A stretch of 64,000 bases of DNA. Source: an uncultured Acidobacteriota bacterium. GTDB taxonomy: Bacteria > Acidobacteriota > Vicinamibacteria > Vicinamibacterales > CAVVIG01. A program made the position numbers and the translations under genes. This document shows positions 21,586 to 63,997 of this stretch, piece by piece. The notes beneath the pieces are model-generated. The model was not told the DNA's origin. It did not search any database and saw only the letters and a program-made list of their open reading frames with translations. Positions within the stretch are counted from its first letter, which is position 1. Each line of letters begins with the position of its first letter. The stretch lies in contig CAVWSQ010000001.1 in NCBI GenBank assembly GCA_963757655.1, forward strand, positions 1,520,961 through 1,584,960, read 5' to 3'.

Positions 21586-21618
21586 GAATTGTTTCAGCCC
21601 GGCTACCTGAAACAATTC
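21586..21618. repeat. Perfect 12-bp inverted repeat GAATTGTTTCAG-N9-CTGAAACAATTC in the divergent promoter region
   Basis: Read directly and cross-checked against the ORF 21070..21621 translation (MELFQVAGLKQF). Confidence 0.8.
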
Positions 21619-21648
21619 CATCGTGCGCGTGCTCTAATACGATAACGG

Positions 21649-22194
21649 ATGGAAGATGTCCACGAGCGCGAGCTCGTCGAGCGCTGCCGTTCCGGAGATG
21701 AGCACGCGTTTCAGGAACTGGTCGATCGCTACAAAGATCAGGTGTTTGCGATGATCGCGCGGACGGTTCAAGATCGATCGCGCGCCGAGGACCTGGCGCA
21801 GGACGTTTTCCTGCGCATCCACCGCGGGCTCCCCTATTTTCGCGGCGAGGCTCGTCTCGCCACCTGGATCTATCGCATCGTCGCCAACGTCTGTCTGCAG
21901 GACCACGGTCGGTCTGCGGCGACGGTGTCGCTCGACGATGAGCGGACAGCGGCCACGGTGATGCCGTCGGGGCCCGATCGGCAGTTCGGCGATCTCGAGT
22001 TGCGCGATCGTCTCGAGAAAGCGATCGCCCGACTGCCGGCGAACTACCGCCTGCTCATCGCCGCGCACTATCTGAACGGCGTGCGGTACGAGGGGCTGGC
22101 CGAAGCGCTGCAGCTGCCGCTGGGCACGGTGAAGACGCAGTTGTATCGGGCGAAGCGGCAGCTGCGGCGAATGCTCGAAACCGATCTCAAGTGA
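21649..22194 (+). CDS. ECF-type RNA polymerase sigma factor (sigma-70 family, group 4)
   Basis: 181 aa. ELVERCRSGDEHAFQELVDRYKDQVFAMIARTV...AEDLAQDVFLRIHRGL (region 2) and ...LPANYRLLIAAHYLNGVRYEGLAEALQLPLGTVKTQLYRAKRQLR (region 4). Confidence 0.9.
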   Translation: MEDVHERELVERCRSGDEHAFQELVDRYKDQVFAMIARTVQDRSRAEDLAQDVFLRIHRGLPYFRGEARLATWIYRIVANVCLQDHGRSAATVSLDDERTAATVMPSGPDRQFGDLELRDRLEKAIARLPANYRLLIAAHYLNGVRYEGLAEALQLPLGTVKTQLYRAKRQLRRMLETDLK

Positions 22195-22215
22195 ACCGTC
22201 GGCAGCGCACTACTT

Positions 22216-22695
22216 ATGTTTTGCGACGAAGCGCTCGACACCGTTGAACCGATCGCCGCCGGAGACCTCATACCGGACGGCCGCGTCGCCGCGCACCTGG
22301 CCAGCTGCCCGAACTGCGCCCTCGCGCTGACCCGCGCCCGTCAGCTCGAGGCGTCGCTGCGCCAGCGTGCGGTTCCAGTTGCGCCGGCGCAATTCACATC
22401 GCGGACCCTGGCCCGGATCCGCCGCGCCCGGTGGCGCAGCGATCAGTTCCTCGACGTCGGCTTCAATCTGGCGATCGGTTTGATCGTATTTGCCGTGGTG
22501 GGCGGCGTGTGGATGCTGTTGCACCGGACCGGTCTGGCCGCGGTCAGCGGCGATGCGGTCAACCTCTTTGGCAGCGGTTTCGTCTCGCTCGCCAAGCGCG
22601 TGGCGCCGGCGCTGCCGCTCTACGCTGGCGCGGCCGCGCTGCTCGTCAGCGCGCTCGGCATCTGGTGGTGGGCGGAACGGGACGCCGCGCTATGA
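22216..22695 (+). CDS. Anti-sigma factor (zf-HC2 type), membrane-anchored
   Basis: Lies immediately downstream of the ECF sigma gene. HLASCPNCALAL zinc-finger motif (H-x3-C-x2-C) plus hydrophobic helices (FNLAIGLIVFAVVGGVWMLL; LPLYAGAAALLVSALGIWWW). Confidence 0.8.
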   Translation: MFCDEALDTVEPIAAGDLIPDGRVAAHLASCPNCALALTRARQLEASLRQRAVPVAPAQFTSRTLARIRRARWRSDQFLDVGFNLAIGLIVFAVVGGVWMLLHRTGLAAVSGDAVNLFGSGFVSLAKRVAPALPLYAGAAALLVSALGIWWWAERDAAL

Positions 22696-23012
22696 GCACT
22701 ATGAAGGGCAGCTAACGGCAGCTTCTTCCGCACCTGCGTCGCTTCTATCCGGCGGCGTTCAACCGTTACATCGAGCCGTTCTTCGCCAGCGGCGCGGTGT
22801 TCTTCGATCTCCATGGCGTCGGGCAGCTCGGCGATCGCGACATGCTGCTGATCGATTCGAACCCCGATGTGATCGGCTGCTATCAGACGGTTCGCGCCCG
22901 GCCCGACGAACACAGTGCCGAAGCGCGCTCGGCCGGGCTGCGCGCGATCCGCGCGCCGGCGCGGCGCGCCACCAACCGCAAACCGGTGCGGCGCGGCGTG
23001 GTCGACGAGTAG
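22692..23012 (+). pseudogene. Remnant of a Dam-like (D12 class) N6-adenine DNA methyltransferase
   Basis: The frame reads MSTMKGS-TAA(22713)-RQLLPHLRRFYPAAFNRYIEPFFASGAVFFDLHGV...LLIDSNPDVIGCYQTVRARPDE. This matches the Dam N-terminus (K/RQLLP...YxEPFxGGGAVFF...DxNxxLIxxY). There is an in-frame stop at codon 8. After about 75 aa the family similarity ends and no DPPY motif is found in any frame before the tRNA. Confidence 0.6.
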
Positions 23013-23159
23013 CTCATCTCGAACATCGCATCTGCCACCGGCGCGCTGTGACCTCATGCCGGTGATTCGAAATCGCCGGACACGGCAGTTGACGCATTGA
23101 CGCCCGACTCCGCCGCAACCCGGAAGCGGCGCCGTGCTACTCTCACACTCTGCACGGAT

Positions 23160-23245
23160 GCGAAAGTGGCGGAATTGGCAGACGCGCCGGACTTAGGATC
23201 CGGTGGTTAACAGCCATGCGGGTTCGACTCCCGCCTTTCGCACCA
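23160..23245 (+). tRNA. tRNA-Leu, anticodon UAG, CCA encoded
   Basis: Folded by hand. Acceptor GCGAAAG/CTTTCGC; anticodon stem CCGGA/TCCGG with loop CTTAGGA (anticodon TAG); long variable arm; T arm GCGGG-TTCGACT-CCCGC; discriminator A plus CCA. Confidence 0.95.
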
Positions 23246-23564
23246 CTGCCCCGTCAGTCCCTGGCACGCAGGTCCGAAGCGAGCACGGCACGAAGGAATT
23301 GGCAGAGCGGGTTCCGGCCCGCTGTCGTCGTCGATCGCGGCACCAACCGCGGGCAATGGTTGGCATTGCATCCTCGGTGTTCGCCGACGGGGAATGCGCC
23401 ATCTGATTGAAGCCGAGCGCGAATGCTGGCCGTCTCTCGAGGACGCGGCCGCCCGACGAGGACGAACGCAGGTGGCCGCCCGGTGGAGCGTTGTCAAGCG
23501 CACACCCGGAATGCTAGGCTGGTTCATCCCCTCTCTCTACTGCTCATAGGTCAGGCTAACTCGC

Positions 23565-25500: not shown

Positions 25501-25527
25501 GTTGCTGGAGCTAATTGCTTCAAGGCG

Positions 25528-25559
25528 AAGGGCTAAGGGCTGAGGGCAAAGGGCTAAAG
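25528..25559. repeat. Heptamer array AAGGGCT AAGGGCT GAGGGCA AAGGGCT AAAG ending at the clpX ATG
   Basis: Read directly. The register is confirmed from the ORF 25515 translation ([15 protein letters not shown]). Confidence 0.85.
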
Positions 25560-26807
<1,248 letters not shown>

Positions 26808-26820
26808 GCGCGAGGAATTT

Positions 26821-26971
26821 CAGAGTGCAGATTTCAGAGTTCAGATTGCGGGTTTCAGATTGCAGATTGCAAAGGCTGCAATCCAATCTGAACTCCGAAC
26901 TCTGACATCAGAACTCTGAAAGAACTCTGACATCAGAACTCTGAAATCTGAACTCTGAAATCTGAAATCTC
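26821..26971. repeat. Heptamer-phased array forming a long imperfect palindrome in the clpX-lon spacer
   Basis: 22 consecutive 7-mers run from 26821 to the lon ATG. The left arm is CAGAGTG CAGATTT CAGAGTT CAGATTG CGGGTTT CAGATTG CAGATTG, the centre is TTGCAAAGGCTGCAA, and the right arm is CAATCTG AACTCCG AACTCTG and so on. An exact 25-bp tandem duplication lies at 26897-26921 and 26922-26946. Confidence 0.85.
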
Positions 26972-29371
<2,400 letters not shown>

Positions 29372-31393: not shown

Positions 31394-31448
31394 TGAGGAA
31401 GTTGGAAGTGAGAACTTTCAAGCGGGCCTGTTACCCGCCGTCGCGGCG

Positions 31449-34907: not shown

Positions 34908-37384
34908 AACGGGATGACCTCCGCATCGCCGGCAGGCGGTGGATTCAATCCGTCGGGCTGGTCGACTGTCTTTCGGAAACGGGCGGCTTCTGAACACGAC
35001 GCCAAAGTCTCGCTCTCCGCCAGCAGATCGAGCATCCGCAACGCCGCGACCTTTGCGAGCGCACCGGTGTGGCCGATCGGGCCGACGCAGCCGGGGCATC
35101 CGCTCTCGCACCCGCATTCCGCGATCAGGCGCCGGGTGGCGTCGAGCAGCTCGTCGTGCCTTTCGAACAGCGGCGCGCTGAAGCCGATGCCGCCCGGGTA
35201 ATTGTCGTAGACGAAAATCGTTTGCGGGTTCGTCGCGGACGCGAGGCTGGCAGCCGCCGCTTCGCCGCTGTCGATCGAAGTGCCGATATCGTGACCGTCG
35301 CACATCAGCAGCAGCTGCGCCACCTGCTTCAGCGCGAACGCCAGCCCGACGACGCCGTCGCGCCGATCGTCGGACGCGTAAGGCAGCGCCGCCATCACAG
35401 TGGAGGGAACGGTCAGCCAGTACGACGTCGTGTGCATCTGCTGCTCTGGCAGATCCAGCTCACCCGAGCCGACGTTCTCGTTGGTGTAGAACTTGATCTT
35501 CTTGAAGCCGACCACTCGTGACACGACGTGCACCTCGCCGTGCGACGCGGACATGGCGTACGGCTTGTTGGCCTCGGCTCCTTCGTCGGACCGGCGGCTC
35601 TGCCCCTTTTGCGCAAACGTGTCGATCCGCGTCACCTTCGCATAGCTGATCGCGGTGGTGTAGTAGTCGCAGTCGATCGACCGGACGAACGCCTTCCGCC
35701 CCTCGAAGTCGAACCGTTCCACCTGAAACAGCCGTCCCTCGACGATGTAGATTGCTTTCGGATGGAGCGTCGACGGTCCGCTGGTGAAATCGGTTTCGCC
35801 GATCACCCGGGTCTCGTCCGTGATGTCGACGACGACGAAGTTGTCCGAGGAGACCGACCGCAGGCTGACGGCGTCAGCCGGATACGATTCATTGGTCCAG
35901 GTCCAGGGCGCATCCTCCCCCGCCCGGTGCACCAGCCCCTGCTCCGAGAGGATACCCAGGATTTCCTGCGCGTCAGGCCGCCCGAACGTCTCGGTGGCGT
36001 GGAACGGCAGCTCGAAGGCCGCGCACTTGACGTGATCGACGAGAATGTGGAGGTTGTCCGGATCGATCAACGCTCGCTCCGGCGATGCATCGAAGAAGTA
36101 CGACGGATTGCGCACGACGAACTGATCGAGCGGCGCGCTGCTGGCGACCATCACCGCGGCGGATCGGCCGTTACGCCGGCCGGCGCGCCCGGCCCGCTGC
36201 CAGGTCGCGGCAATCGTGCCCGGATAGCCCGCCATGATCGAGACATCGAGCGCGCCGATGTCGATGCCGAGCTCGAGCGCGTTGGTCGAAACCACCGCGC
36301 GCACCGCTCCTTCGCGCAGTCCCTTCTCGATCTCACGGCGCCGGTTCGGCAGATAGCCCCCGCGGTATCCGCGGATCCTCTCTGCGGCGCCGGGTATCCC
36401 CTCGAAGTCGTCCTTGAGATAGGTGGTCAGAATTTCGGTCGAGAGCCGGCTCTGCGCGAACACGATCAGCTGCAGGTTGCGCTTGAGGAATTCCGACGCG
36501 ACCCGACGTGTCTCGCCCAGATACGACCGGCGGATACCGAGCTGCTGGTTCACGACCGGCGGATTCACGAAGACGAAGAACTTCTCGCCACGTGGCGCCC
36601 CGCTTCTGTCGATCAGCTCGAAGGCCTGCTCGGTGAGCCGCTCCGCCAGCTCACGCGGATTCTGAATCGTCGCCGACGAGCAGAGAAACACCGGGTTCGA
36701 GCCGTAGTGCCTGCAGATTCGCCTCAGGCGTCGCAGCACGTTGCACAGGTGGCTGCCGAAAACACCCCGGTAGGCGTGCAGCTCGTCGATGATCACGTAA
36801 CGCAGGTTCTCGAACAGCTTCGCCCAGCGCGGATGGTGCGGCAGGATTCCTGAATGCACCATGTCCGGATTGCTGAGCACGATGTGGGCGCGCGATCGGA
36901 TGGTGCGCCGCGCGTCCTGCGGCGTGTCGCCGTCGTAGGTGAAGACGGCGATGCCGGTCAGCGCTTCGCACATCGCGTGCAGCTCGGCGAGCTGATCCTG
37001 CGCCAGCGCCTTGGTCGGGAACAGGTAGAGCGCGCGGCTGGAGGGATCCTTGAGGATCGCGTCGAGCACCGGGGCGTTGTAGCAGAGCGTTTTGCCCGAC
37101 GCCGTGGGCGTGACGACCACTGTGTGGCGCCCGGCCAGCGCGTGCTCGATCGCTTCCGCCTGGTGCGTGTAGAGCTCTTCCACACCGCGCGCCTGCAACG
37201 CTGATTTCAGGCGCGGATCGAGCGACTCAGGGAACGCTTCCAGCTGCGCGGGGACCGCCGGCAGTCGACGCACCGCAGTGACATGAAGGTCTGGAGTATC
37301 GGGACGATCGCCGTCGCGGCCGCCTATGCGTTCCAGCGCCGCATCGAGCGCGCCATCGCTGCGGGATCGGGTCGCGGGAAGCAT
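34904..37384 (-). CDS. DEAD/DEAH-box helicase with C-terminal DUF1998/4-Cys domain (YprA/MrfA-like)
   Basis: ORF 34904..37513 trimmed to Met44; the upstream codons derive from REP repeats. Motif I VVVTPTASGKTLCYNAPVL; motif II VIIDELHAY; SSAT. C-terminal part reads CGCESGCPGCVGPIGH. Confidence 0.85.
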   Translation of the reverse strand: MLPATRSRSDGALDAALERIGGRDGDRPDTPDLHVTAVRRLPAVPAQLEAFPESLDPRLKSALQARGVEELYTHQAEAIEHALAGRHTVVVTPTASGKTLCYNAPVLDAILKDPSSRALYLFPTKALAQDQLAELHAMCEALTGIAVFTYDGDTPQDARRTIRSRAHIVLSNPDMVHSGILPHHPRWAKLFENLRYVIIDELHAYRGVFGSHLCNVLRRLRRICRHYGSNPVFLCSSATIQNPRELAERLTEQAFELIDRSGAPRGEKFFVFVNPPVVNQQLGIRRSYLGETRRVASEFLKRNLQLIVFAQSRLSTEILTTYLKDDFEGIPGAAERIRGYRGGYLPNRRREIEKGLREGAVRAVVSTNALELGIDIGALDVSIMAGYPGTIAATWQRAGRAGRRNGRSAAVMVASSAPLDQFVVRNPSYFFDASPERALIDPDNLHILVDHVKCAAFELPFHATETFGRPDAQEILGILSEQGLVHRAGEDAPWTWTNESYPADAVSLRSVSSDNFVVVDITDETRVIGETDFTSGPSTLHPKAIYIVEGRLFQVERFDFEGRKAFVRSIDCDYYTTAISYAKVTRIDTFAQKGQSRRSDEGAEANKPYAMSASHGEVHVVSRVVGFKKIKFYTNENVGSGELDLPEQQMHTTSYWLTVPSTVMAALPYASDDRRDGVVGLAFALKQVAQLLLMCDGHDIGTSIDSGEAAAASLASATNPQTIFVYDNYPGGIGFSAPLFERHDELLDATRRLIAECGCESGCPGCVGPIGHTGALAKVAALRMLDLLAESETLASCSEAARFRKTVDQPDGLNPPPAGDAEVIPF

Positions 37385-37620: not shown

Positions 37621-37668
37621 TGGAGTCAGGAACAGCTGACCCTCCCGTGCTAGGCTTCCGCCGACCTC

Positions 37669-46453: not shown

Positions 46454-49142
46454 CCCGCAGCGCAGCGAGCGGATCGATGCGCGTGGCGCGCGAGGAGGGG
46501 ACCGCGACCGCCAGCAGCGCCACGAGCGCCAGCAGCAGCGACATCGACACGTAGACCAGTGGATCCGCGGCGCTGATCCCGAACAGCATCGTCGCCATGA
46601 ACCTGGTCAACGCGAGCCCGCCGGCGACGCCGATGCCAATCCCCAGCAGCGTCATCGATCCCGCCTCGCGCAGCATCAGCGTCAGCACTTGTTTCCGCGA
46701 CGCGCCGAGCGCCATTCGAACGCCGATCTCGCGGGTCCGCTGGGTCACCAGATAGGCCATCACCCCGTAGAGGCCGGCAGCGGTCAACGCCAGGGCGACG
46801 AGGGCAAACGCCGAGACGAGCACGAAATTGAGACGACGCGGCGCAATCGAGTCGCCGATGAGATCGTCCATGTTGCGGACGAGCCCGACGGGAACCTGCC
46901 GGTCAACGTGGGACACCGCGGCACGCAAGAGCGGCGTCACCGAGGCGGCATCGCCGGTTGTGCGAATGACCAGCGTCATCGCCCGCTCGAAACCGAAGCC
47001 CAGGGAGTCGAATGCCTGGCGCTGCGGGAGATACGCCGCCGGCTCGGTTTCAGCGTCGAGCCCTTCGTGGCGCGTGTCGCCCACGATGCCGACAATCTCG
47101 CGCCATTGGTCGACAGCGCCGATGCTGATCCGCTGCCCTATCGGATCGTCGTTCTGCCAATAACGACGAGCCGCTGCTTCGTTCAGGATGACGACGCGAC
47201 CAGACGTCTCGACGTCGTGAGCGGTGAATTCCCGTCCGCGCCTCAGGGGAATGCCCAGGGTCTGAAAGTAACCGGTCGAGACAAGGCGCGGGTGCAGGCG
47301 AACCGGAATCGGCGACTCCGCCGTGCGGTGTTCGATCGTCAGGTTGAGGCGCGAGTCGGCGCCATCAAACGGCAACGACGTCGTCACGCCAACGCGTTGG
47401 ACTTCCGGCGCCGCAGCAAGCTGTTCGGACAACGCATCGAAGAACCCAACCACGCGGGCGTGTTCACCATATCGGGTCGAGGGCAGGGTCACGCGCGCGA
47501 TGACCAGCTGCGCCGGCTGGAACCCGGGCGACACGTTGAGCAGGTTGTTGAAGCTGATGACGAGCAGCGACGCACCGGAGAGCAGGACGAGCGACAGGGC
47601 GAGTTCCGCGACCACCAGCGCGGCGCGGAGACGCTTCGCCCTCGCGCTGCCGCTGCCGCCGCGCGATTCCTCGTTCAACGACACCGCCAGGCGTTGATCC
47701 GACGCCGCGAGCGCCGGCAGCACGCCGAACAGGAGACCCGTGATCAGCGACACGACCGCCGACGCCGTCAGCACGCGCACGTCGATGCCGAGTTGATCGA
47801 GACCGGGCAAGCCGGCGAACCGCGCCGGGAGCAGCGCACGGAGGGCCGACAAGCTCCAGGCGGCGAAGAGCACGCCGGCGGCTCCCCCGACGGCGGCGAT
47901 CACCAGGCTTTCGGTCAGCATCTGCTGGACGAGCCGCCGTCTCGATGCACCGACCGCCGTGCGGATTGAGATTTCCTTCTGTCGCGCCGCCGCGCGTGCG
48001 AGCAGGAGTGTGGCGACGTTCGCGCAGGCGATCAGCAGCACGAAACCAACCGCACCGAGCACCACCAGCAGCATCGTCTCGACGTCGCCGACGAAGGCGG
48101 CGCGCAGCGGCCGGAGGTTGGGCGCATGGTTGGCGTTTTCCTCGGGGAATTCGCGGGCGAGCCTCGTCCCGATGAGGCGAAGCTCTTCCCGCGCGCCTTC
48201 CACCGCTACGCCATCAGCGAGCCGGCCGATCGCCTCGAGGAAGTGCGCTGCCCTCAATGTGCGGTCGTGATCGTCCAGCGCGAGCGGCACGACAATGTCG
48301 GGCCGCGACGGCCACCAGAATCGCGCCGGCAGCACACCGATGATCTCGAAGGTCTTGCCGTCGAAGGCCACGGTTCGGCCCACGGCCGATGGGTCGGCGC
48401 CAAAACGGCGGCGCCAGAGCGTGTCGCTGAGCAGGACGACGCGATGACGGCCGACCGTTTCTTCTTCGGCGCGGAAATCACGTCCGAGCGCCGGCCTGAC
48501 GCCGATGACGTTCAGGAATTGCGGGGTCACTTCGAGCGGCCGCACGCGTTCGGGTTCGCCGTCACCGGTCAGGTTGTACGCGCCTGACGGCGAGAGAATC
48601 GTGTACGCCGCCATCGCCGAGAACGAGCGGCTGTCGCGCTGCCAATCGAAGTAGTCGGCAGGGGCGATCGGACCGAACCAGCGGCTCTCGCGCGGCCGCT
48701 GTTCGGCGAGCGACATCACGCGATCGGCGTGCGGATACGGCAGCGGCCGCCACAACACGGCGTCGACGACGCTGAAGATGGCGGTGGTGGCGCCGATGCC
48801 GAGGACGAGCGCGAAAACGGCGACGGCGGTGAATCCCGGCTGCCGTTGCAGCATCCGAACACCGAAGACGATGTCCTGTCGAAGGCCGTCCCACATATGT
48901 CCGAACCCTCTCAATTCGTCCGCAATCGGCGGCAGCGGCCGGCCGTGCGCCGCCCGTTCCCATCTGAACGTGAGCGCCAGCCGCAGCGATTGCCACCACA
49001 GCCAGGCGCCCGCGAACCGGCGGCCGCCGCGAGCTCGCCTCGCGAGATATTCTTCGTGGAGGTCGCCGGCAATCGGATCGCGGAGATCCCCGGGCACGAA
49101 CCGCGCAAACAGCCGCAGGCTGAACGGCAGGCGTTCGGACAT
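46446..49142 (-). CDS. ADOP family duplicated ABC-type permease (two MacB/FtsX-like halves)
   Basis: 898 aa. The N-terminal FARFVPGDLRDPIAGDLHEEY is typical of ADOP proteins. There are two FtsX-type 4-TM modules, and a PadR gene lies directly upstream. Confidence 0.85.
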   Translation of the reverse strand: MSERLPFSLRLFARFVPGDLRDPIAGDLHEEYLARRARGGRRFAGAWLWWQSLRLALTFRWERAAHGRPLPPIADELRGFGHMWDGLRQDIVFGVRMLQRQPGFTAVAVFALVLGIGATTAIFSVVDAVLWRPLPYPHADRVMSLAEQRPRESRWFGPIAPADYFDWQRDSRSFSAMAAYTILSPSGAYNLTGDGEPERVRPLEVTPQFLNVIGVRPALGRDFRAEEETVGRHRVVLLSDTLWRRRFGADPSAVGRTVAFDGKTFEIIGVLPARFWWPSRPDIVVPLALDDHDRTLRAAHFLEAIGRLADGVAVEGAREELRLIGTRLAREFPEENANHAPNLRPLRAAFVGDVETMLLVVLGAVGFVLLIACANVATLLLARAAARQKEISIRTAVGASRRRLVQQMLTESLVIAAVGGAAGVLFAAWSLSALRALLPARFAGLPGLDQLGIDVRVLTASAVVSLITGLLFGVLPALAASDQRLAVSLNEESRGGSGSARAKRLRAALVVAELALSLVLLSGASLLVISFNNLLNVSPGFQPAQLVIARVTLPSTRYGEHARVVGFFDALSEQLAAAPEVQRVGVTTSLPFDGADSRLNLTIEHRTAESPIPVRLHPRLVSTGYFQTLGIPLRRGREFTAHDVETSGRVVILNEAAARRYWQNDDPIGQRISIGAVDQWREIVGIVGDTRHEGLDAETEPAAYLPQRQAFDSLGFGFERAMTLVIRTTGDAASVTPLLRAAVSHVDRQVPVGLVRNMDDLIGDSIAPRRLNFVLVSAFALVALALTAAGLYGVMAYLVTQRTREIGVRMALGASRKQVLTLMLREAGSMTLLGIGIGVAGGLALTRFMATMLFGISAADPLVYVSMSLLLALVALLAVAVPSSRATRIDPLAALRGT

Positions 49143-51696: not shown

Positions 51697-51739
51697 GGAA
51701 CCCGCATAGTATGCGCCCTTTGTTCGTGGTGCTTTCGTG

Positions 51740-51862
51740 CTTGGTCCGTGGTCCGTGGTCCTGGGTCCGTCCTTTGGTCCTGGATCCGCGAATCAGGTAC
51801 CCAGGATCAACCCGGACCAAGGACCAAGAACCAAGTACGGACCGCGGGCCAAGAACCAGGAA
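51740..51862. repeat. Heptamer arrays with opposed arms (CTTGGTC CGTGGTC CGTGGTC CTGGGTC ... GGACCAA GGACCAA GAACCAA)
   Basis: Read directly in the divergent spacer between the APC permease and amidohydrolase genes. The register was checked with the ORF 51711 translation. Confidence 0.8.
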
Positions 51863-51882
51863 GCATGGACTAGAATCCGCGC

Positions 51883-52890
51883 ATGAAGATCGACGTGTTC
51901 GCCCACGTACTGCCGCCGCGTTACCTGGAAGAGAGGAATAAACGCGCCGGCAACCGGCTCGCCACACAGTACGGCAAATATTTCCACGCCAACCCCGGAC
52001 TCACCGATCTGGACGTCCGCTTCCGCGCGATGGACAAGTACCCCGACATCGTCCAGCTGCTGACGATCGCCGGTCCGAATCTGGAGAGCGTGCTGGAACC
52101 GGAGGACGCGGCGGAATGCGCCCGTGTCGCCAACGACGAGATGGCGGAGCTGGTGGCGAAGCACCCGCATCGCTTCTGCGGCGCCTGCGCCGCGCTGCCG
52201 ATGAATGACGTCGACGCGGCGCTCCGGGAAGCCGATCGCGCGATCAGGGATCTGCGATTTCGCGGCGTCGAGATCTTCACCGACCACAACGGCCGCCCGG
52301 TGGACGCGCCAGAGATCTTCCCGCTCTACGAAAAGATGGCGGCCTACAACCTGCCGATCCTGCTCCACCCGCGCCGCACCAATACGACCGCGGACTACCA
52401 GGGCGAGGCGAGTTCGAAGTACCTGATCTACACGAACTTCGGCTGGCCCTACGAGACCTCGCTCGCCATGGCGCGCCTCGCGTTCGGCGGTCCGCTCGAG
52501 AAATATCCGAACCTCAAGATCGTCACGCACCATGCCGGCGGCATGGTTCCGTACTTCCACAAGCGGGTGCAGCTGTCGTGGGACTTCAACGAGATGCGCA
52601 TGGGTTACCAGCACGACGGTCAGACCCTCACCAAGGCGCCTGTCGATTACTACCGGATGTTCTACTGCGACACCGCGATCCAGGGGAACACACCGGCGCT
52701 GATGTGCGCCTACGAATTCTTCGGAGGGGATCACATGGTGTTCGCCACCGATACGCCGTACGACAACCAGCTTGGCGAGCGCGTGACGCGCGAGACGATC
52801 GAGGGGGTCGAGGCGATGCCGATCGATGCGGCGGCGAGACAGAAGATCTACGCAGACAACGCGCGCCGGCTGTTCAGACTGCCGGTATAG
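51883..52890 (+). CDS. Amidohydrolase-2 family protein (ACMSD-like metal-dependent hydrolase/decarboxylase)
   Basis: 335 aa. MKIDVFAHVLPPRYL...; ...ILLHP...; ...IVTHHAGGMVPY...; ...MVFATDTPYD. The TIM-barrel metal-ligand pattern (H-x-H...H...D) is plausible. Confidence 0.75.
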   Translation: MKIDVFAHVLPPRYLEERNKRAGNRLATQYGKYFHANPGLTDLDVRFRAMDKYPDIVQLLTIAGPNLESVLEPEDAAECARVANDEMAELVAKHPHRFCGACAALPMNDVDAALREADRAIRDLRFRGVEIFTDHNGRPVDAPEIFPLYEKMAAYNLPILLHPRRTNTTADYQGEASSKYLIYTNFGWPYETSLAMARLAFGGPLEKYPNLKIVTHHAGGMVPYFHKRVQLSWDFNEMRMGYQHDGQTLTKAPVDYYRMFYCDTAIQGNTPALMCAYEFFGGDHMVFATDTPYDNQLGERVTRETIEGVEAMPIDAAARQKIYADNARRLFRLPV

Positions 52891-54541: not shown

Positions 54542-54595
54542 TGGTGTTGCTCGTCGAAACTAGATGTTTAGTCCCCAGTCCCTAGCCGCCGGTTC

Positions 54596-57445
<2,850 letters not shown>

Positions 57446-57608
57446 TCCGGGGGGTCTCCCGGATCGCGGCGATCGCCCTCCCGCCCCAGGGGGTGACCGT
57501 CGTGGCTGTATTGGAAAACAGTGGCCGCTCAGAAAACCTGGAAACCTGCTGCGCACTCACGGGAAGCTGGGAGCCCCCGTTCGTATGCTCTGTCTCGCTC
57601 GGCGGACC

Positions 57609-57661
57609 AATATGCGCTTGGCTAGAAGGTTTGTCAAGCGTGTAAACACCACATATTGTGC
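57609..57661 (-). promoter_or_regulatory. Candidate nrdJ promoter (-35 TTGACA, 17 nt, -10 CATATT) with an upstream NrdR-box-like palindrome
   Basis: On the minus strand the -35 is at 57637-57632 and the -10 at 57614-57609. The 16-mer ACACCACATATTGTGC (57646-57661, plus strand) matches the remembered NrdR box acaCwAtATaTwGtgt at 13 of 16 positions. Only a half-site (CCAATAT) overlaps the -10. Confidence 0.5.
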
Positions 57662-57713
57662 ATCTGTTTTAGGTCACTCGCAAGATGTGGACGTGGTTGG
57701 CAGGATCTGGTCT

Positions 57714-58280: not shown

Positions 58281-60166
58281 CAGGCCTGCGGCAGCAGCAG
58301 ACGGAACGTCGTGCCCGCGCCGGGCGTCGACTGCACTTCGATTTCACCATCATGCATCTGCACCGTCCGGTACACCATGGACAGACCGATGCCGCTGCCC
58401 TTTTCCCTGGTCGTGAAATACAGATCGAAGATGCGCTGCAGATTGGCCGGCGCGATGCCGATGCCGGTGTCGGTGAAGACCACCGCGACGCGGCGGCCGC
58501 GCGCCGACTCGCAGCGAATGCGCAGGGTACCGCCGCTCGGCATCGCCTGGCAGGCATTCAAGGCGAGGTTGAGGAACGCCTGGCGCAGCATGGCCGGATC
58601 GCCGTTGACATCGGGCGCGGCATCGCAGTCCACCGTCAGCTGCACCCGCGCGCGATCGGCCTCGGGACGCACGATCGGCACGATTTCGTCGAGCAGCGCG
58701 CGTACTGCGACTGGCTGCAGCTTCAAGTCCTCGGGCCGCGTGAACTTGAGGAAGCCCTGCACGACCTCGTCGAGGCGCCTGATCTCGTGCGCGATGACGT
58801 CGACGTGCTGAATCGCTTCGATGCGATCCATCGGCGGATCGACCACCACGGTCGCTCGCGGGTCGCCCGACGGGCCGTGGGCAGACAGCGCCCGCGCCGC
58901 CACCGACGATCCGCGCCCCAGGCCGGGCGATGGCCGCGGCGGGCTGACCTGCTGGCGCAACAGCTCGAGGTGAATCATCATCGCATTCAGCGGGTTCTTG
59001 ACTTCGTGCGCCACACCGGCCGACAGGCGGCCGAGCGCGGCGAGCTTGCGCGAGTATCGCACCGTCGATTGCACTTCGCTCAGATACTCGACGTTGCGGG
59101 CAATCAGCATCACGCCGACCAGGTCGCCCTTGGGATCGCTGATCGCGTGGGTCATCACCAGGCGTTCGCTGTCGCCGAATGGCGCCGACAGCGGCCCGCG
59201 CGACTGCCGGCTGACGAAGGTCTGCTCCGAGAGGCGTCGGAGCGGGTGCTCGGCCGGCAAAATGTCGTCGAGCGACGCCCCGGGTGAGGCATTCGGCAGC
59301 AGGGCGCGCATCGCCGGGTTCGCAAACAGCAGCTGGCCGCGCGCGCTGACGATGGCGACCGCGTCCTCCAGCTGCTCGACGGCCGACTCGAGGTTGGCCA
59401 CCTGCCCGGCCATCTGGGTGCGATCGGCCGACAGCTGCTCGCTGACCGTGTTGAAGAAGGTGCCGAGCTCGCCGAACTCGTCCCTCTGATTCAGATCGAG
59501 CTGGACGCCGAACTCGCCTTTGCCCAGCCGGGTCAGGCCACTGCGGATCACGTGGATGGGCCGCAGAAACAGCTGCGAGAGCAGCGTCGCCACCAGGACC
59601 GAGACCCCCAGCGCGGCCAGCGCCGTCACCAGCGATGGCCGCAGCGACTGACCCAGATCCTGACGAATCAGAAGCGTCGACACGCCGATGCGCGTCGATC
59701 CGATCTCGGTATCGCCCAGCAGCAGCGGCCCGCGAAACTCGAGGTTCTGCCCCTGGCTCGAATAAATCGCGAGCAGCTGCGACAGCGGCGACTGCTCGAG
59801 CAGCTTGCCCAGATCGCCGACCGGCGGCAGCGGCCGACCCTCGAGCGATCGATCGGCGTGGGCGACCGCGACGCCATGGACGTCCACCAACGCCGCGTAC
59901 ATCACGTTCTTCGAATACAGGCTCGACTCGAGAATCGAGCGCAGTCCCGGATCGGCGCGCAGCGCGGCGAGCGGGTCGGCGCCGTCGACGACCACCTGCT
60001 GCGCGCGATGGTAGATTGCGTTCGCGAGCAGTTCCGCGCGCGCGCTGCTTTCATCGAGGCTGACGCTGGCCAGCCGCGCCAGTTGCAGCACGCTGAGCAC
60101 CACCACGACGGTGACCACGATCGAGGTCACGCCGAGGACCTGCTTGCCTTTGATGCCTAAACGCAT
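58280..60166 (-). CDS. Sensor histidine kinase (TM-HAMP-PAS-HisKA-HATPase)
   Basis: ORF 58280..60235 trimmed to Met24; the upstream codons derive from the heptamer array. H-box LGRLSAGVAHEVKNPLNAM; N/G boxes LNLALNACQAM...DTGIGI...GSGIGLS. Confidence 0.9.
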   Translation of the reverse strand: MRLGIKGKQVLGVTSIVVTVVVVLSVLQLARLASVSLDESSARAELLANAIYHRAQQVVVDGADPLAALRADPGLRSILESSLYSKNVMYAALVDVHGVAVAHADRSLEGRPLPPVGDLGKLLEQSPLSQLLAIYSSQGQNLEFRGPLLLGDTEIGSTRIGVSTLLIRQDLGQSLRPSLVTALAALGVSVLVATLLSQLFLRPIHVIRSGLTRLGKGEFGVQLDLNQRDEFGELGTFFNTVSEQLSADRTQMAGQVANLESAVEQLEDAVAIVSARGQLLFANPAMRALLPNASPGASLDDILPAEHPLRRLSEQTFVSRQSRGPLSAPFGDSERLVMTHAISDPKGDLVGVMLIARNVEYLSEVQSTVRYSRKLAALGRLSAGVAHEVKNPLNAMMIHLELLRQQVSPPRPSPGLGRGSSVAARALSAHGPSGDPRATVVVDPPMDRIEAIQHVDVIAHEIRRLDEVVQGFLKFTRPEDLKLQPVAVRALLDEIVPIVRPEADRARVQLTVDCDAAPDVNGDPAMLRQAFLNLALNACQAMPSGGTLRIRCESARGRRVAVVFTDTGIGIAPANLQRIFDLYFTTREKGSGIGLSMVYRTVQMHDGEIEVQSTPGAGTTFRLLLPQA

Positions 60167-60167
60167 G

Positions 60168-60251
60168 TCATGGCTGATGGCTGAGGGCTGATGGCACCGG
60201 GACCATGGCCCCATCGACCATGAGCCATCAGCCACGAGCCGTCAGCCATGA
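60168..60251. repeat. 12 in-register heptamers forming a hairpin with a 28-bp stem (about 24/28 paired) between RR and HK genes
   Basis: TCATGGC TGATGGC TGAGGGC TGATGGC ACCGGGA CCATGGC CCCATCG ACCATGA GCCATCA GCCACGA GCCGTCA GCCATGA. The left arm (60168-60195) is complementary to the right arm (60224-60251). Confidence 0.9.
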
Positions 60252-60256
60252 ATTGC

Positions 60257-61678
60257 CTATTCCGTCTTCTTGGGCCTGAGCCTCAACTTGTTGAGCTTAT
60301 TGTGCAGCGTTTTCAGGCTGATGCCTAGAATTTCGGCGGCGCGTGTCTTGTTGTCGCGGGTGTGCGCCAGCGTCATCACAATCAGCCGCCGCTCCGCCTC
60401 CTCGACCGTCGTGCCCGGCGCCAGCGCCAGCTGCGGCTGCTGCGGTACAGGCGGCTCATCGGTCAGCGCCGGCGGGAGGTGCCTGGTCTCGATGAACGGA
60501 CCGGGCGCCAGGATCGTCGCCCGCTCGATCACGTTGCGCAGCTCGCGAACGTTGCCGGGCCAGGCGTAATGCTCCAGCATGCGCATCGCCGCCTGATCCA
60601 CGCCGGCAATCGACTTCTGGTTGCGGGTGTTGAACTCGGCAATGAACGCCTGCACGAGCAGCGGCAGGTCCTCCTTGCGCTCGCGTAGCGTCGGCAGCCG
60701 AAGCGAGAACACGTTCAGCCGGTAGTAAAGATCCTCGCGCAGCTTGCCCTGTTGGACCGCCGTCGCCGGATCGATGTTGGTCGCCGCAATCACGCGCACG
60801 TCGACGCTCTGCTCGGCGCGGCCGCCGAGACGGCGGAAACTGCGTTCCTGGAGCACGCGCAGCAGCTTGACCTGCGTTGCCGGCGTCATCTCGCCGATCT
60901 CGTCGAGAAACAGCGTGCCGCGGTCCGCCAGTTCGAAGCAGCCCTGCCGTCGATCGGCGGCGCCGGTGAACGCGCCTTTCTCGTGCCCGAAGATCTCGCT
61001 CTCGAGCAGCGTTTCCGGAATCGCCGCGCAGTTGATGGCGATGAACGGAAATCCCGCGCGCGGGCTGAGCTGGTGAATCGTCTGCGCGATCAGCTCCTTG
61101 CCGGTGCCCGATTCGCCGGTGATGAGCACCGACGCCGCGGTGGGCGCCGCCTGCTCGACCACCTGATAGATCTTGCGCATCTCCGGGCTGTTGCCGATGA
61201 GCGAGCCGAAGGTGCCGTGCTCGCGCAGCTGTCGGCGTAGCGCCTTGACCTCGCGCATCGTCTCGAGCCGCTCGACGATTTTGTCGAGCAGGATCTTCAG
61301 GCGCTGGATGTCGACCGGCTTGGTCAGGTAGTCGTAGGCGCCTTCCTTCATCGCCTCGACTGCCGTGTCGACCGTGCCCTGCGCCGTCAGCAACAGCGTC
61401 GTCACGTCGGCGCCGACCTGCGGCAGCGCGCGCAACAGGGCGAGCCCGTCCATGCGCGGCATGACCATATCCGTGATCACGATCGCGGGACGAAATGACG
61501 TGACTTTCTCGAGCGCCTCTTCTCCGTCGCTCGCGGAATCGGCTATGAAGCCCCAGCTCCTGACGAGTTGTTCCAGCCCGATTCGCGCCGACGCGTCGTC
61601 CTCGACGATCAGCACCCGCTCGGCTGCGATTTTTGGATCGGCTTCGACAATTTCGGGAGTGCCTGCTGTAATCATCAA
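60257..61678 (-). CDS. Sigma-54-dependent response regulator (NtrC family: REC-AAA+-HTH)
   Basis: 473 aa. REC domain VLIVEDDASARIGL...AIVITDMVMPRMDG; Walker A VLITGESGTGKELIA; GAFTGA present; LFLDEIGE; C-terminal HTH RAAEILGISLKTLHNKL. Confidence 0.95.
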   Translation of the reverse strand: MMITAGTPEIVEADPKIAAERVLIVEDDASARIGLEQLVRSWGFIADSASDGEEALEKVTSFRPAIVITDMVMPRMDGLALLRALPQVGADVTTLLLTAQGTVDTAVEAMKEGAYDYLTKPVDIQRLKILLDKIVERLETMREVKALRRQLREHGTFGSLIGNSPEMRKIYQVVEQAAPTAASVLITGESGTGKELIAQTIHQLSPRAGFPFIAINCAAIPETLLESEIFGHEKGAFTGAADRRQGCFELADRGTLFLDEIGEMTPATQVKLLRVLQERSFRRLGGRAEQSVDVRVIAATNIDPATAVQQGKLREDLYYRLNVFSLRLPTLRERKEDLPLLVQAFIAEFNTRNQKSIAGVDQAAMRMLEHYAWPGNVRELRNVIERATILAPGPFIETRHLPPALTDEPPVPQQPQLALAPGTTVEEAERRLIVMTLAHTRDNKTRAAEILGISLKTLHNKLNKLRLRPKKTE

Positions 61679-61806: not shown

Positions 61807-62508
61807 ATGCGAGTGACGGTGCTCAGTGTTCTGGTGGCGGGAACCGTGCTGGTGGGGTGCAACCGATCCGAAGCGACGATTACGGGCCACGCTGTGGCAA
61901 ACCCGGTCAGTGCCGCCCGCGAACCAGACGCCGCGCCGGTGGCGAGGGCGGGCCGCAAGGCAGGGTCGGAGCCGGCGCCGGAAGGAGAAAGAGAAATCAT
62001 CATCCCGTTGGGCACTCTGCTCCGCATCACGCTCGACACCCCCGTCGGGTCCGACACGAGCCGGGTGGAAGAATCGGTCACCGCGCACCTCGCCCGACCG
62101 GTTCGCGTACAGGGACGGACGGTGCTGGCGGCCGGCACCCGCGTGAGCGGAGTCGTCACGCTCGCGACGCGATCGGGGAAGATCAAGGGCCGCGCGCACG
62201 TTGCGATGCGCTTCAATTCCCTCACGCACGGCGACGAGGAATATGCGATCCGCACCGCGGGCGTGGGACGCACGGCGCAGGGCACGAAACAGAAGGACAC
62301 ATTGGAAATCGGTGCGCCGGCGGTCGGCGGCGCCATCATCGGCGCGCTGGTCGGCGGCAAAAAGGGTGCGCTGGTTGGCACGGCGGTGGGCGGCGGCGCC
62401 GGCACCGCAGCGGTCTTGTCGACTCGCGGCAAGGAAGTCCGCATCGGCAAGGGTGCGGCGTTGACGATCCGGCTGACCGCGCCGTTGACGGTGCACGTCA
62501 GGGACTGA
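61807..62508 (+). CDS. Lipoprotein with C-terminal glycine-zipper segment
   Basis: ORF 61753..62508 trimmed to Met19. MRVTVLSVLVAGTVLVGCN lipobox; IIIPLGTLLRITLDTPVGSDTSRV...; glycine zipper IGAPAVGGAIIGALVGGKKGALVGTAVGGGAGTAAV. Confidence 0.75.
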   Translation: MRVTVLSVLVAGTVLVGCNRSEATITGHAVANPVSAAREPDAAPVARAGRKAGSEPAPEGEREIIIPLGTLLRITLDTPVGSDTSRVEESVTAHLARPVRVQGRTVLAAGTRVSGVVTLATRSGKIKGRAHVAMRFNSLTHGDEEYAIRTAGVGRTAQGTKQKDTLEIGAPAVGGAIIGALVGGKKGALVGTAVGGGAGTAAVLSTRGKEVRIGKGAALTIRLTAPLTVHVRD

Positions 62509-62705
62509 GGGAGGCTGCAGTCAGGGCCGAGGGCTCGAGCGTCAGAGATCTAGGGTCAGGGATCAGGGCTGACGTCGATGGCTATGGTCAACGGCTTGTG
62601 GCACGATCGCGGCGTTGAACGATCAACTTCCTTCCAACAACGGGAACCGCTACGGCCCATCCGACCATAGCCCTCAGCCCTCCGCCCCTCGCCGTGACCC
62701 TGGCG
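62498..62705. repeat. Two opposed heptamer-type arms (TCAGGG/TGAGGG/CGAGGG units versus CCCTCAG CCCTCCG CCCCTCG CCGTGAC CCTGGCG)
   Basis: The left arm (62498-62590) has some phase slips. The right arm (62671-62705) is in perfect register. The unit vocabulary is the same as at 25528 and 60168. Confidence 0.7.
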
Positions 62706-63412
62706 GCCCGCCGCCGCTCGCGGCGCGCGCGGTGGCGGTGATCGAGGTACTGCTCTGTTCCGATGTGGTCACACAACTGGCGATCGGCGGGACGCTCACC
62801 GCGCTCGGGTACAAAGCGAAAACGCCTGGCGGCCAGCTCAGCATCGGCTACATCGTCGCGCTGTCACTGGGCGATGCGGTGCTGCTGATTGGCCTCATCC
62901 TGGCGCTGCTCTACGCGCACGGCGAGCAGCCCGGCGATGTTTTCTTCGGCCGGCGACCGGTTTTCTCGGAGGCGGTTTTCGGTCTCTGGCTGATTCCGCT
63001 CGCGTTCGGCGTCGCGGCCGCGGTGATCCTCACGGTCCGCCGATTCGTGCCGTCGCTGCACAACGTCGAACACAATCCGTTGCAGGGATTGCTGGGATCG
63101 CCGCGCGACGCGTGGTGGTTCGCGCTCGTGGTCGTCGTCGCTGGCGGCGTGCGCGAAGAAATCCAGCGCGCATTTCTGCTGCACCGCTTCGATGTGTGGC
63201 TGGGTGGCCGCATGACGGGCCTGATCGTGACGAGCGTCGCATTCGGCGCCGGTCACTTCGACGTGCAGGGCATCGACGCCGGCATCGCCACCGGCCTGCT
63301 CGGACTGTTCTGGGGCGTGGTGTATCTGCGGCGGCGATCGGCCGTCGCACCAATGGTCAGCCACGCCGGATTCGACCTGTTGCAGATCGTGCCGTTCCTC
63401 GGGCTGACGTGA
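62615..63412 (+). CDS. CPBP family intramembrane glutamic endopeptidase (CAAX protease/Abi-like)
   Basis: GVREEIQRAFLLHRF (EExxxR), SVAFGAGHF (FxxxH) and VSHAGFDLL (HxxxD/N). The true start is probably downstream (GTG 62732 or 62738), because codons 1-35 are the heptamer arm. Confidence 0.8.
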   Translation: MNDQLPSNNGNRYGPSDHSPQPSAPRRDPGGPPPLAARAVAVIEVLLCSDVVTQLAIGGTLTALGYKAKTPGGQLSIGYIVALSLGDAVLLIGLILALLYAHGEQPGDVFFGRRPVFSEAVFGLWLIPLAFGVAAAVILTVRRFVPSLHNVEHNPLQGLLGSPRDAWWFALVVVVAGGVREEIQRAFLLHRFDVWLGGRMTGLIVTSVAFGAGHFDVQGIDAGIATGLLGLFWGVVYLRRRSAVAPMVSHAGFDLLQIVPFLGLT

Positions 63413-63447
63413 CCGGACGCGGCATCGCGGCTCGGCCCGCAGCCTCG

Positions 63448-63939
63448 TCAGCGTCCGGCGAGGTAGAGATCGATCACCTCACCCCGACGCCGCAGGCCGG
63501 TCACCCATTCCTTGACGGCGGCGACGCGCTGGTCCGCTGATGTGCTGAATCGCTGATCGAGATACGCCTGCATGCGCAGATCCTGGCGCAGCGTCTCGCG
63601 CAGGTGGCGCTCATCGATTCCCGAACGCGCCAGGGCGGCGTCGAACGCAGACGGCGACGGGAAGCGCCGCCGCACCTTCTCGACCTCGCGGTCCACGGCG
63701 TCGGCGGTCGGCTCGGCCGGGGCATAGCGATCGACTTCCGCCAGGACTAGCTCGCGATCGATCAGTTTGTCGAGGACGGCGCGCACCGGATCGGTGGCGT
63801 TGCCAGGCGTCTGCAGCCCCAGGTCGGTCGCCGCCGCCACGTCGCTCAAGGTGATCAACTGTCCGGCGACCAGGGCGAGCACACGGTCGATGGTCTCGGC
63901 GCGCGCACCGTTCACCGCGAGCGCGCAGACGACCAGCAT
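63448..63939 (-). CDS. SurA N-terminal domain-like periplasmic chaperone
   Basis: ORF 63448..63999 trimmed to Met21. Signal peptide MLVVCALAVNGARA; DRVLALVAGQLITLSDV...LDKLIDRELVLAEV...; no PPIase domain. Assignment is moderate. Confidence 0.6.
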   Translation of the reverse strand: MLVVCALAVNGARAETIDRVLALVAGQLITLSDVAAATDLGLQTPGNATDPVRAVLDKLIDRELVLAEVDRYAPAEPTADAVDREVEKVRRRFPSPSAFDAALARSGIDERHLRETLRQDLRMQAYLDQRFSTSADQRVAAVKEWVTGLRRRGEVIDLYLAGR

Positions 63940-63962
63940 CAATCCGACGCGACCGGTGCCGC

Positions 63963-63997
63963 CACTCGGCACTCTGCACTCTGCACTCTGCACTCTC
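63963..63997. repeat. Heptamer array CACTCGG CACTCTG x3 CACTCTC (CAGAGTG on the minus strand) upstream of the SurA-like gene; may continue beyond the window
   Basis: Read directly. Same unit as the first unit of the clpX-lon array (CAGAGTG). Confidence 0.85.

Follow-up and report, generated by a model that had tools for sequence, protein, structure and literature searches.

Gaps between genes in the stretch of DNA studied here are often filled with tandem repeats of a 7-nt unit. The stretch (64,000 nt of contig CAVWSQ010000001.1, assembly GCA_963757655.1, hereafter the window) is 66% GC and belongs to an uncultured soil member of the Vicinamibacterales, Acidobacteriota. An earlier note, made from the letters alone, had taken the host to be Acidobacteria-like; indeed, the Lon and ClpX proteins of the window are 80–99% identical to proteins of metagenome-assembled genomes (MAGs) labelled Vicinamibacterales/Acidobacteriota. 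Of the spacers that measure 30 nt or more, about 36 in number, seven (about one gene gap in five) are built from arrays, and in five of these seven loci an array is followed by its own reverse complement. On balance, the probable, though by no means certain, explanation is that these are heptanucleotide microsatellites resembling the short tandemly repeated repetitive (STRR) sequences of cyanobacteria, generated by slippage and inverted copying, whose presence in operon spacers is tolerated where they can fold out. The kind of element is already known; what is new here is its presence in Acidobacteriota, a further phylum.

Seven heptanucleotide arrays in the window

The gene map of the window was built from codon usage and then checked by Pfam. 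Period-7 arrays were called with Tandem Repeats Finder (TRF), and lag-7 self-identity was scanned in 42-nt sliding windows, where lag 7 is the sole non-trivial lag to reach at least 70% self-identity, with the exception of lag 14 (twice 7), lag 15 (four windows) and lag 9 (a coding Gly-rich repeat). For each locus, 1000 dinucleotide shuffles were allowed their best lag among 4–12, and even so all seven loci beat them (p < 0.001 each). The window arrays are, in other words, 7-nt tandem repeats of at least three copies beyond what chance gives, as are STRRs and heptanucleotide long simple sequence repeats (LSSRs). The lag-9 signal comes from a coding 9/18/27-nt repeat, GCCGGCGGCGCGGGTGGT, Gly/Ala-rich and present in about 8.6 copies at 42991-43233, inside the long − strand open reading frame (ORF) 41826-44618.

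The earlier note had counted at least eight period-7 spacers; seven loci stand by TRF and by the shuffles, but two short runs that it had added, 31394-31414 and 54568-54588, do not. Each has 9 of 14 lag-7 matches, a score equalled or bettered by 609 windows in the 64 kb; their p-values against the best lag (0.14 and 0.05, respectively) place them at chance level as members of the family, and they fold no better than shuffles. The “strict register” ascribed to the arrays was also too strong a term, given that the phase slips in places, that one unit has 6 nt, that a 25-nt higher-order repeat is present and that the central loops of 51740-51862 and 62498-62705 are devoid of periodicity. Most window arrays are degenerate (68–81% matches), the only near-perfect one being at 63963-63996 (96%), and their units (CAGAKTK, GAACTNA, GGTCCGT, TGATGGC/TGAGGGC and AAGGGCT) combine a conserved core of 4–5 nt with 2–3 variable positions. 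Phase-variation (contingency) repeats are defined by near-perfect tracts whose copy number switches gene expression; in the arrays described here, copy number differs between species.

The five loci made of an array and its reverse complement are referred to as B, D, E, G and H. Array B fills the clpX to lon spacer (26808-26971, + strand). Its 5′ arm (26817-26871; TRF 26817-26868), made of CAGAGTG/CAGATTT/CAGATTG units, begins 10 nt past the clpX stop codon, and its 3′ arm (26887-26970, TRF), made of about 12 TCTGAAC/TCTGAAA units, reaches the ATG at 26972; the arms are unequal (7 against 12 units), and the 3′ arm holds a 3/4-nt phase slip and the 25-nt higher-order repeat. The predicted fold of 26800-26995 reaches −79.4 kcal/mol (z −6.9 against shuffles). 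Array D lies on the − strand between a MacB-like permease gene and an SDF symporter gene (spacer 46342-46445; TRF 46344-46451, with the 6-nt unit inside 46342-46453). Its 5′ arm (46379-46451, AAGTTCC-type units as read on the + strand) overlaps the permease stop codon (46446-46448), while its 3′ arm (46342-46378, GAACT-type units on the sense, i.e., −, strand) ends 0–3 nt 5′ of the SDF/DAACS symporter ATG (46341); the predicted fold of 46330-46460 is worth −46.1 kcal/mol (z −3.6).

Array E occupies a divergent spacer (51697-51882) between an amino-acid permease gene (−) and an amidohydrolase_2 gene (+), where GGTCCGT units on the left (51740-51786; TRF 51742-51770) are answered on the right by their reverse complement, GGACCAA (51806-51853; TRF 51814-51835), and 51697-51890 is predicted to fold at −94.2 kcal/mol (z −5.8). 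Array G, on the − strand between a sigma-54 response regulator gene and a histidine kinase gene (spacer 60167-60256), has a 5′ arm of TGATGGC/TGACGGC units on the sense strand (60218-60251, TRF) about 5 nt past the response-regulator stop (60257-60259) and a 3′ arm of GCCATCA units on the same strand (60170-60195, TRF), 1–4 nt 5′ of the histidine-kinase ATG at 60166, a start confirmed by a 628-aa database protein that is 100% identical; its predicted fold (60155-60270) is −59.3 kcal/mol (z −4.8). Array H (spacer 62509-62731, + strand) separates the uncharacterised + strand gene 61813-62508, which is backed by annotation in the relatives L161–L163, from a CAAX protease gene (62732). Loose TCAGGGA/TGAGGGC-type units on the left (62498-62568; TRF 62521-62568) overlap the stop codon 62506-62508, and GCCCTCA/GCCCTCC units on the right (62662-62690; TRF 62669-62687) are their reverse complement; lag-7 identity over the whole locus is 0.41 (p < 0.001, shuffles), and the predicted fold of 62490-62740, at −122.4 kcal/mol, is only weakly better than shuffles (z −2.1).

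The two remaining loci show a single array each. Array A, in the clpP to clpX spacer (25501-25559, + strand; flanks by Pfam), is a direct array of about 4.9 AAGGGCT/GAGGGCA units at 25524-25557 (TRF; lag-7 identity 0.80, p < 0.001 against dinucleotide shuffles), with no inverted partner; no hairpin is found in 25501-25575 (z 0.05), and the AAGG located 7 nt 5′ of the clpX ATG (25560) comes from its final unit. Array I, CAGAGTG repeated 4.9 times on the − strand (63963-63996; TRF, lag-7 identity 0.93), lies 5′ of a SurA_N/Skp-like gene starting at about 63942, in a spacer (63943-64000) that corresponds to the spacer between BamA and a small gene in relatives; the window end cuts this array, and any partner arm would lie beyond view. 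The claim that the spacers can fold into long imperfect hairpins thus holds strongly for B, D, E and G and weakly for H, but not for A, with I truncated.

Arrays in related genomes and their turnover

We then looked at 1.54 Mb of DNA around lon from 80 species-level genomes (L001–L080) and at a second, independent sample of 0.43 Mb of metagenome contigs around clpX. Together with the window, the lon loci amount to 1.60 Mb, of which 18.5% is non-coding, and arrays were accepted there when called by TRF with at least three copies and a score of at least 40. The excess of lag 7 in non-coding DNA, which the earlier note had proposed as one test of its reading, is present in the window as well as in the relatives: the lon loci hold 64 lag-7 arrays against 0–11 for each of lags 4, 5, 8, 10, 11 and 13. 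That a period of 7 is a signature of non-coding DNA also proved right, since TRF finds 111 period-7 arrays in non-coding against 6 in coding sequence over the 1.60 Mb, the runner-up periods being 8 (14 non-coding) and 9 (12 non-coding); in the independent sample, 32 period-7 arrays are non-coding and 4 coding, next to 12 non-coding ones of period 8. The arrays are, like STRRs, confined to non-coding DNA. Period-8 arrays (for example, ATTGGGTA/ATCTGGTA; clpX-lon spacer of L087 and 26 further loci) are non-coding too and take the same inverted-pair form at about one-fifth of the period-7 frequency, so that the step is not exclusively 7 nt.

The architecture extends through the Vicinamibacterales at a density that is uneven and limited by clade: every 10 kb of non-coding DNA contain about 10 arrays in the window, 9.4 in L011–L022 and 1.8 in distant Vicinamibacterales, and the seven Acidiferrales loci used as an outgroup have zero arrays. 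All types of spacer contain them, namely 9.3% of the co-directional, 9.2% of the convergent and 6.8% of the divergent ones.

The clpX-lon spacer was followed across 65 relatives, an array hairpin being defined there by a lag-7 identity of at least 0.43 and z of at most −2. The spacer measures less than 25 nt in 22 of them, and 17 of the remaining 43, mostly in the clade nearest the window, carry an array hairpin. Its units differ among genomes, with both arms changing together: TTCAGAG/TTGCAGA in the window and L001, TTGCTGA in L003, L009 and L013, TTTCCAG in L010, CCATCAG in L011, GGGACCA in L016, GGCTCCA in L020 and L068, and GGATTCG in L022. Even among contigs whose clpX DNA is about 90% identical to that of the window (L001, L081, L082, L085–L087), this site is found empty, with a spacer of 10–14 nt (L081, L082, L086), or filled with a TTGGTGA hairpin (L085), an 8-nt TTGGGTA hairpin (L087) or the window's own units in fewer copies (L001). 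Orthologous spacers, thus, switch between filled and empty at about 90% nucleotide identity, and copy number varies over the same distance, with clpX-lon arms of 5–7 against 6–12 units and 1–5 units in the clpP-clpX AAGGGCT array. Other sites tell a similar story: the TGATGGC/GCCATCA hairpin between response regulator and kinase is retained in L161 and L163 and reduced to its 3′ arm in L162, and the spacer of array H, 5′ of the CAAX protease gene, holds arrays in the window and in L162 (a clean TGATGGC/TGAGGGC hairpin) and none in L161 and L163.

The earlier note had also remarked that distant loci of the window use the same unit vocabularies, and this is what we found. The CAGAKTK family, for example, occurs in the clpX-lon and BamA-skp spacers of the window, and the BamA-skp spacer of L161 has CAGATTG/CAGATTT. 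With 22–64 kb of DNA per genome, the consensus units of two loci separated by more than 500 nt within one genome differ by at most one mismatch, in any rotation and on either strand, in 17.7% of cases, against 4.4% when the two loci belong to different genomes (permutation p < 0.0005). As in STRRs, each genome has a few unit families dispersed over its loci. The window loci share no conserved element longer than the heptamer, in particular no 20–40-nt palindrome such as characterises repetitive extragenic palindromic (REP) sequences and the REP doublets forming hairpins known as REPINs.

The sole longer shared element that we saw is a composite array in L031, where modules GCCGATA, CAGTAG, GAAGCAA and GGGGCAT follow one another in fixed order at 2731-2867, 4102-4314 and 6334-6535, within 4 kb. 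Two of the copies are inverted around a gene which, rather than a transposase, encodes a class I/II aminotransferase. This triple composite is evidence for the copying of whole arrays between loci. The same genome carries a TTGGGGA/TTAGGGA unit (i.e., GGGGATT) at 3995-4064, 12383-12442, 14546-14643 and 15905-15995, identical to the G-quadruplex heptamer of Nostoc PCC 7120 (PMC4692102); this match could reflect convergence or a shared bias.

Hairpins, spacer geometry and the probable origin of the arrays

Inverted pairing is a general property of the arrays. Over the window and its relatives, co-directional spacers that bear an array hold a palindrome of at least 14 pairs in 34 cases out of 50, while array-free spacers do so in 42 cases out of 169, and adjacent arrays match each other's reverse complement (distance of at most 1) in 14 of 33 pairs and are never direct copies. 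The units themselves are not built around short palindromes of the CAGCTG or GGATCC type, a candidate that we dropped: 8 units are within one mismatch of being self-complementary, for 15.3 ± 3.0 after shuffling.

In the 34 palindromic spacers, the hairpin has about 34 pairs, occupies about 80% of the spacer and lies at a median of 5.5 nt past the upstream stop and 12.5 nt before the downstream start; about 10 of 38 arrays run into or even provide the upstream stop codon. The hairpins, thus, fill the spacer, and stop codons are abutted at least as tightly as starts. The arrays had been described as abutting start codons, and they do come within 0–20 nt of the clpX, lon, SDF symporter, histidine kinase and SurA_N-like starts, but they approach the upstream stops just as closely. 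Units acting as “stop-codon traps” were considered and discarded, stop codons being present in 11 of 38 arrays on the sense strand and 10 of 38 on the antisense strand for 9.6 expected.

A role of the arrays as substitutes for absent Shine-Dalgarno (SD) sequences found no support either. An SD core (AGGA, GGAG or GAGG between −18 and −4) precedes only 10 of the 55 window genes and, across all loci, 25% of about 1160 genes in relatives, against 11% of random positions; tig and clpP, which have well-defined starts and no array, likewise lack it. As SD cores are scarce among all genes, their lack is a property of the lineage and not of the array-bearing genes. Cyanobacteria and Bacteroidetes, which are rich in heptamers, are also lineages with little SD use.

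One has to keep in mind that arrays lengthen spacers and produce false ORF extensions and ambiguous starts, as for lon and the SurA_N-like gene here, and that they are likely to be assembly-sensitive sites in MAGs. Two candidate starts are available for lon, the ATG at 26972, which abuts array B, and the TTG at 26987, with GGAG (26974-26977) 9 nt upstream; array-free relatives, such as L081, L082 and L086, keep an (A/T)GGAG-N-TTG lon start, and L006 needs the ATG. For the SurA_N-like gene, the ORF list runs in frame through array I up to an ATG at 63999. The equivalent ATG of L161 is out of frame with the gene, so array I is most likely part of a 5′ untranslated region and the long ORF, with its extension over 63943-63999, an artefact.

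How would such spacers come about? Tandem arrays in non-coding DNA could lengthen, shorten and drift in 7-nt steps through strand slippage, and the inverted neighbour copy would arise most simply by intrastrand template switching (fold-back copying), the array and its inverted copy turning the whole spacer into one long imperfect palindrome. Arrays would build up, with fast turnover, wherever non-coding DNA tolerates them, chiefly in the gaps between stop codon and ribosome-binding region of tightly packed operons. Once transcribed, the palindrome should form a hairpin of about 30–50 bp, which would loop the insert out and leave the stop codon of one gene and the start codon of the next only about 20 nt apart again; this fold-out is what we propose as the reason why hairpin-forming inserts persist, any influence on how stable the mRNA is or how the neighbouring genes are translated being, presumably, secondary.

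The composition of the stems speaks to the role of RNA pairing. With arms aligned without favouring any mismatch type, the stems of co-directional spacers hold, on the sense strand, 994 Watson-Crick pairs, 50 G:U, 77 A:C and 134 transversions. Stems under selection for RNA pairing would be expected to admit G:U but not A:C. The absence of a G:U excess over A:C, in a comparison of modest power, argues against such selection, and we rejected this candidate; the two arms resemble DNA copies of one another undergoing decay.

Several observations sit badly with slippage and inverted copying as the whole explanation. The recurrence of unit families at distant loci of a genome and the four-module composite found at three L031 loci are not accounted for by purely local slippage, so some copying between loci must act as well, possibly gene conversion or a transposition-like dispersal. 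The hairpins of the clpX-lon and response regulator-kinase spacers persist with related units across species at 84–92% protein identity, which selection could explain. Finally, slippage does not say why units measure 7 nt, and in some arrays 8.

Selection is at the heart of the alternative which fares best, although we find it rather unlikely: the hairpins would be selected intercistronic RNA elements comparable to REP sequences and bacterial interspersed mosaic elements (BIMEs), heptamer slippage being only the way in which stems evolve. They would protect upstream mRNA 3′ ends, undergo processing by RNase III or another enzyme, damp upstream translation, being located at most 15 nt from the stop, or couple downstream translation. 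The median distance of 5.5 nt past the stop is within the range where E. coli REPs stall terminating ribosomes, according to Liang et al. (2015), as cited in PMC12306157, and equal roles have been suggested for cyanobacterial STRR hairpins (PMC2670836). Predicted stabilities are very high (−46 to −94 kcal/mol, with z as low as −6.9), an array hairpin is more frequent in the clpX-lon spacers of at least 25 nt (17 of 43) than in co-directional spacers overall (about 9%), the two arms change together between genomes and the response regulator-kinase hairpin is kept in L161 and L163. Against these points stand the wobble counts given above, the relatives at about 90% identity that lack the hairpin, the 22 of 65 clpX-lon spacers too short to hold one, the unequal arms and the arrays of divergent spacers such as E, where there is neither a 3′ end to protect nor coupling to ensure. 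A REP-like function is possible for some hairpins (clpX-lon, response regulator-kinase), with support neither from the wobble test nor from the array-free close relatives.

Nor do the stems resemble intrinsic terminators, another candidate that we put aside: no U-tract follows them, and a scan with the terminator consensus gives a single weak match, inside array D (tail ATTGGTTCTA). This genome does use ordinary terminators, since a canonical one (10-bp GC stem, TTCG loop, T-rich tail) follows the ribonucleotide reductase (RNR) gene at 54542-54519 on the − strand, which also speaks against REP-like elements whose stems lack U-tracts. The short run 54568-54588 comes after the RNR stop codon and ahead of this terminator. 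Rfam 15 covariance models run over the whole window at gathering score match none of the arrays, the only match being tRNA-Leu (23160-23242).

The shared vocabularies, the L031 composites and the persistence at clpX-lon and response regulator-kinase are also the reason why we keep in mind, as improbable, a process acting on DNA that has escaped recognition (an enzyme, a non-autonomous element or biased gene conversion) and that would write genome-specific heptamer vocabularies as inverted arrays into the gaps between stop and start in operons, the hairpins then serving as evolvable, slippage-tunable rheostats of operon polarity and translational coupling. A mobile-element reading has a slim chance: the arrays would be non-autonomous or actively dispersed DNA resembling REPINs or miniature inverted-repeat transposable elements, spread by a genome-encoded enzyme, such as a REP-associated tyrosine transposase (RAYT) of the Y1 type or a nickase, and then remodelled by slippage. 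Genome-specific vocabularies common to distant loci (CAGAKTK at two window sites and one in L161), the L031 composite with two copies inverted around the aminotransferase gene and orthologous sites that are either filled or empty are all in its favour. However, the window loci have nothing longer than a heptamer in common, filled and empty sites show no target-site duplication or defined termini, the neighbours of the arrays are housekeeping genes by Pfam with no transposase among them, and the gradual drift of units at a single site between species (TTGCAGA, TTGCTGA, TTGGTGA) fits evolution in place.

Hardly credible, finally, is a regulatory array of binding sites, one per 7 nt, for a cold-shock or S1-domain protein, or of G-quadruplexes: units do have a conserved core with variable positions, CspB is described as binding heptamer repeats, each unit taking up one protein (reviewed in PMC4679880), and array A, in the clpX 5′ region, matches a G3N4 ×4 pattern, hence a possible G-quadruplex like the G-rich heptamers studied as regulators (PMC4692102), but the cores vary by locus (CAGA, GAAC, GGTCC, TGATGGC) and by genome so that no single sequence-specific factor fits, the quadruplex-capable copy number of array A is not kept in relatives (1–5 units), and most units are not G-rich. 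Slippage with inverted copying and a fold-out filter, supplemented by copying between loci, is the reading that we retain.

Known heptanucleotide repeats and other elements of the region

The units of the cyanobacterial families STRR1 to STRR3 are CCCCAGT, TTGGTCA and CAACAGT. The window arrays are not STRRs in the strict sense (Mazel 1990), as their host belongs to the Vicinamibacterales and their units are other than those of STRR1–3; the comparison drawn in the earlier note is nevertheless apt, the arrays being 7-nt, non-coding and dispersed in families. Like STRRs (Mazel et al. 1990; PMC2670836, PMC4692102), they repeat their unit in tandem from a few up to about 20 times, lie in non-coding DNA only, show several unit families per genome over many loci and include hairpin-capable members between co-transcribed genes. 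In cyanobacteria, the 7-bp repeats between hupS and hupL form such hairpins and have been suggested to stabilise the transcript or to couple translation (PMC2670836). The arrays described here differ in that they reside in Acidobacteriota, in a 66% GC genome, are more degenerate, have unrelated unit sequences (except for GGGGATT of L031, the Nostoc unit) and occur as inverted pairs as a rule (about two-thirds of array-bearing operon spacers), whereas such pairs are occasional among STRRs.

Heptanucleotide repeats have been known since 1990 and recognised since 2007 as the most over-represented class of long simple sequence repeats, in many bacteria, with polymerase slippage proposed as their cause (Mrazek 2007, as cited in PMC4692102 and PMC4679880). 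The GGGAATC arrays of Xanthomonas and GGGGAYT arrays of Nostoc (Mrazek 2007; Rehm et al. 2015, PMC4692102) resemble ours in their period-7 intergenic excess, their location often less than 50 nt from a start or stop, their conserved gene positions in related species with variable length and sequence, the existence of some inverted pairs and the proposed origin by slippage. There, however, one G-rich unit dominates and attention has focused on G-quadruplexes, whereas here many unrelated, mostly non-G-rich units are used and hairpin-forming pairs dominate.

The TAACTGA repeats of marine Beggiatoaceae, some cyanobacteria and Bacteroidetes (MacGregor 2015, PMC4679880) are also intergenic heptamer tandems, the majority of them a few nt 5′ of a start codon, in lineages making little use of SD sequences. 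They consist of a single fixed unit in 2–6 copies, nearly always direct (one inverted set in 170), in contrast to the longer arrays described here, with their diverse units, their mostly inverted pairs and an anchoring to the upstream stop that is at least as tight. REP, BIME and REPIN elements of Enterobacteria and Pseudomonas (PMC12306157) are, like our hairpins, intergenic imperfect palindromes often found right after stops within operons; they reach hundreds of copies per genome in genome-specific families, with documented effects on mRNA stability and, at 15 nt or less from a stop, on translation, where they stall ribosomes and lower protein output (Liang et al. 2015, as cited in PMC12306157). 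They are fixed 20–40-nt sequences without internal tandem period, mobilised by RAYT transposases, whereas the loci studied here have only the 7-nt unit in common, stems made of tandem units and no known link to a transposase.

The arrangement as a whole is, thus, not as unprecedented as the earlier note had thought: heptamer arrays that form hairpins (PMC2670836), that are inverted (PMC4692102) or that sit next to start codons (PMC4679880; bioRxiv 10.1101/2022.06.06.494920) have been published, the last of these reports showing that Nostoc heptamers near starts alter reporter expression. Our search of the literature on heptamer repeats in Acidobacteria, Vicinamibacter and Luteitalea found no report; in PMC4060949, Acidobacteria appear only in a phylum table. 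A second array-rich lineage, remote from cyanobacteria and with many sequenced relatives, makes a useful comparative system, and palindromic arrays at defined operon positions, filled or empty at about 90% identity, allow the origin of the arrays, the persistence of hairpins and a possible tuning of operon expression to be asked about.

Other intergenic features of the region deserve a mention. The long spacers 20620-21069 (450 nt, 54% GC) and 23013-23564 (552 nt, with the tRNA-Leu gene at 23160-23245) contain no heptamer arrays and, tRNA-Leu aside, no Rfam matches. The class II RNR gene (54596-57445) is preceded on the − strand by a leader of about 270 nt (57446-57713) that is highly conserved in L161–L163; it has no Rfam match at gathering score and carries a promoter-like TTGACA-17-CATATT together with an NrdR-box-like sequence, CACAATATGTGGTG. 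Intergenic repeats of another kind than the heptamer arrays are also present: the divergent spacer 37274-37737 holds a 44-nt tandem repeat (37488-37615; 2.8 copies, 77% matches) with a GC-rich hairpin, GTCCGGCTGAAGCCGGAC, in each copy, and in L010, at about 5660-5960 (3′ of lon), several tandem copies of a REP-like hairpin, GCTTCCGCCTTTAGGCGGAAGC, follow one another at a spacing of about 60 nt and form a separate family of palindromic repeats.

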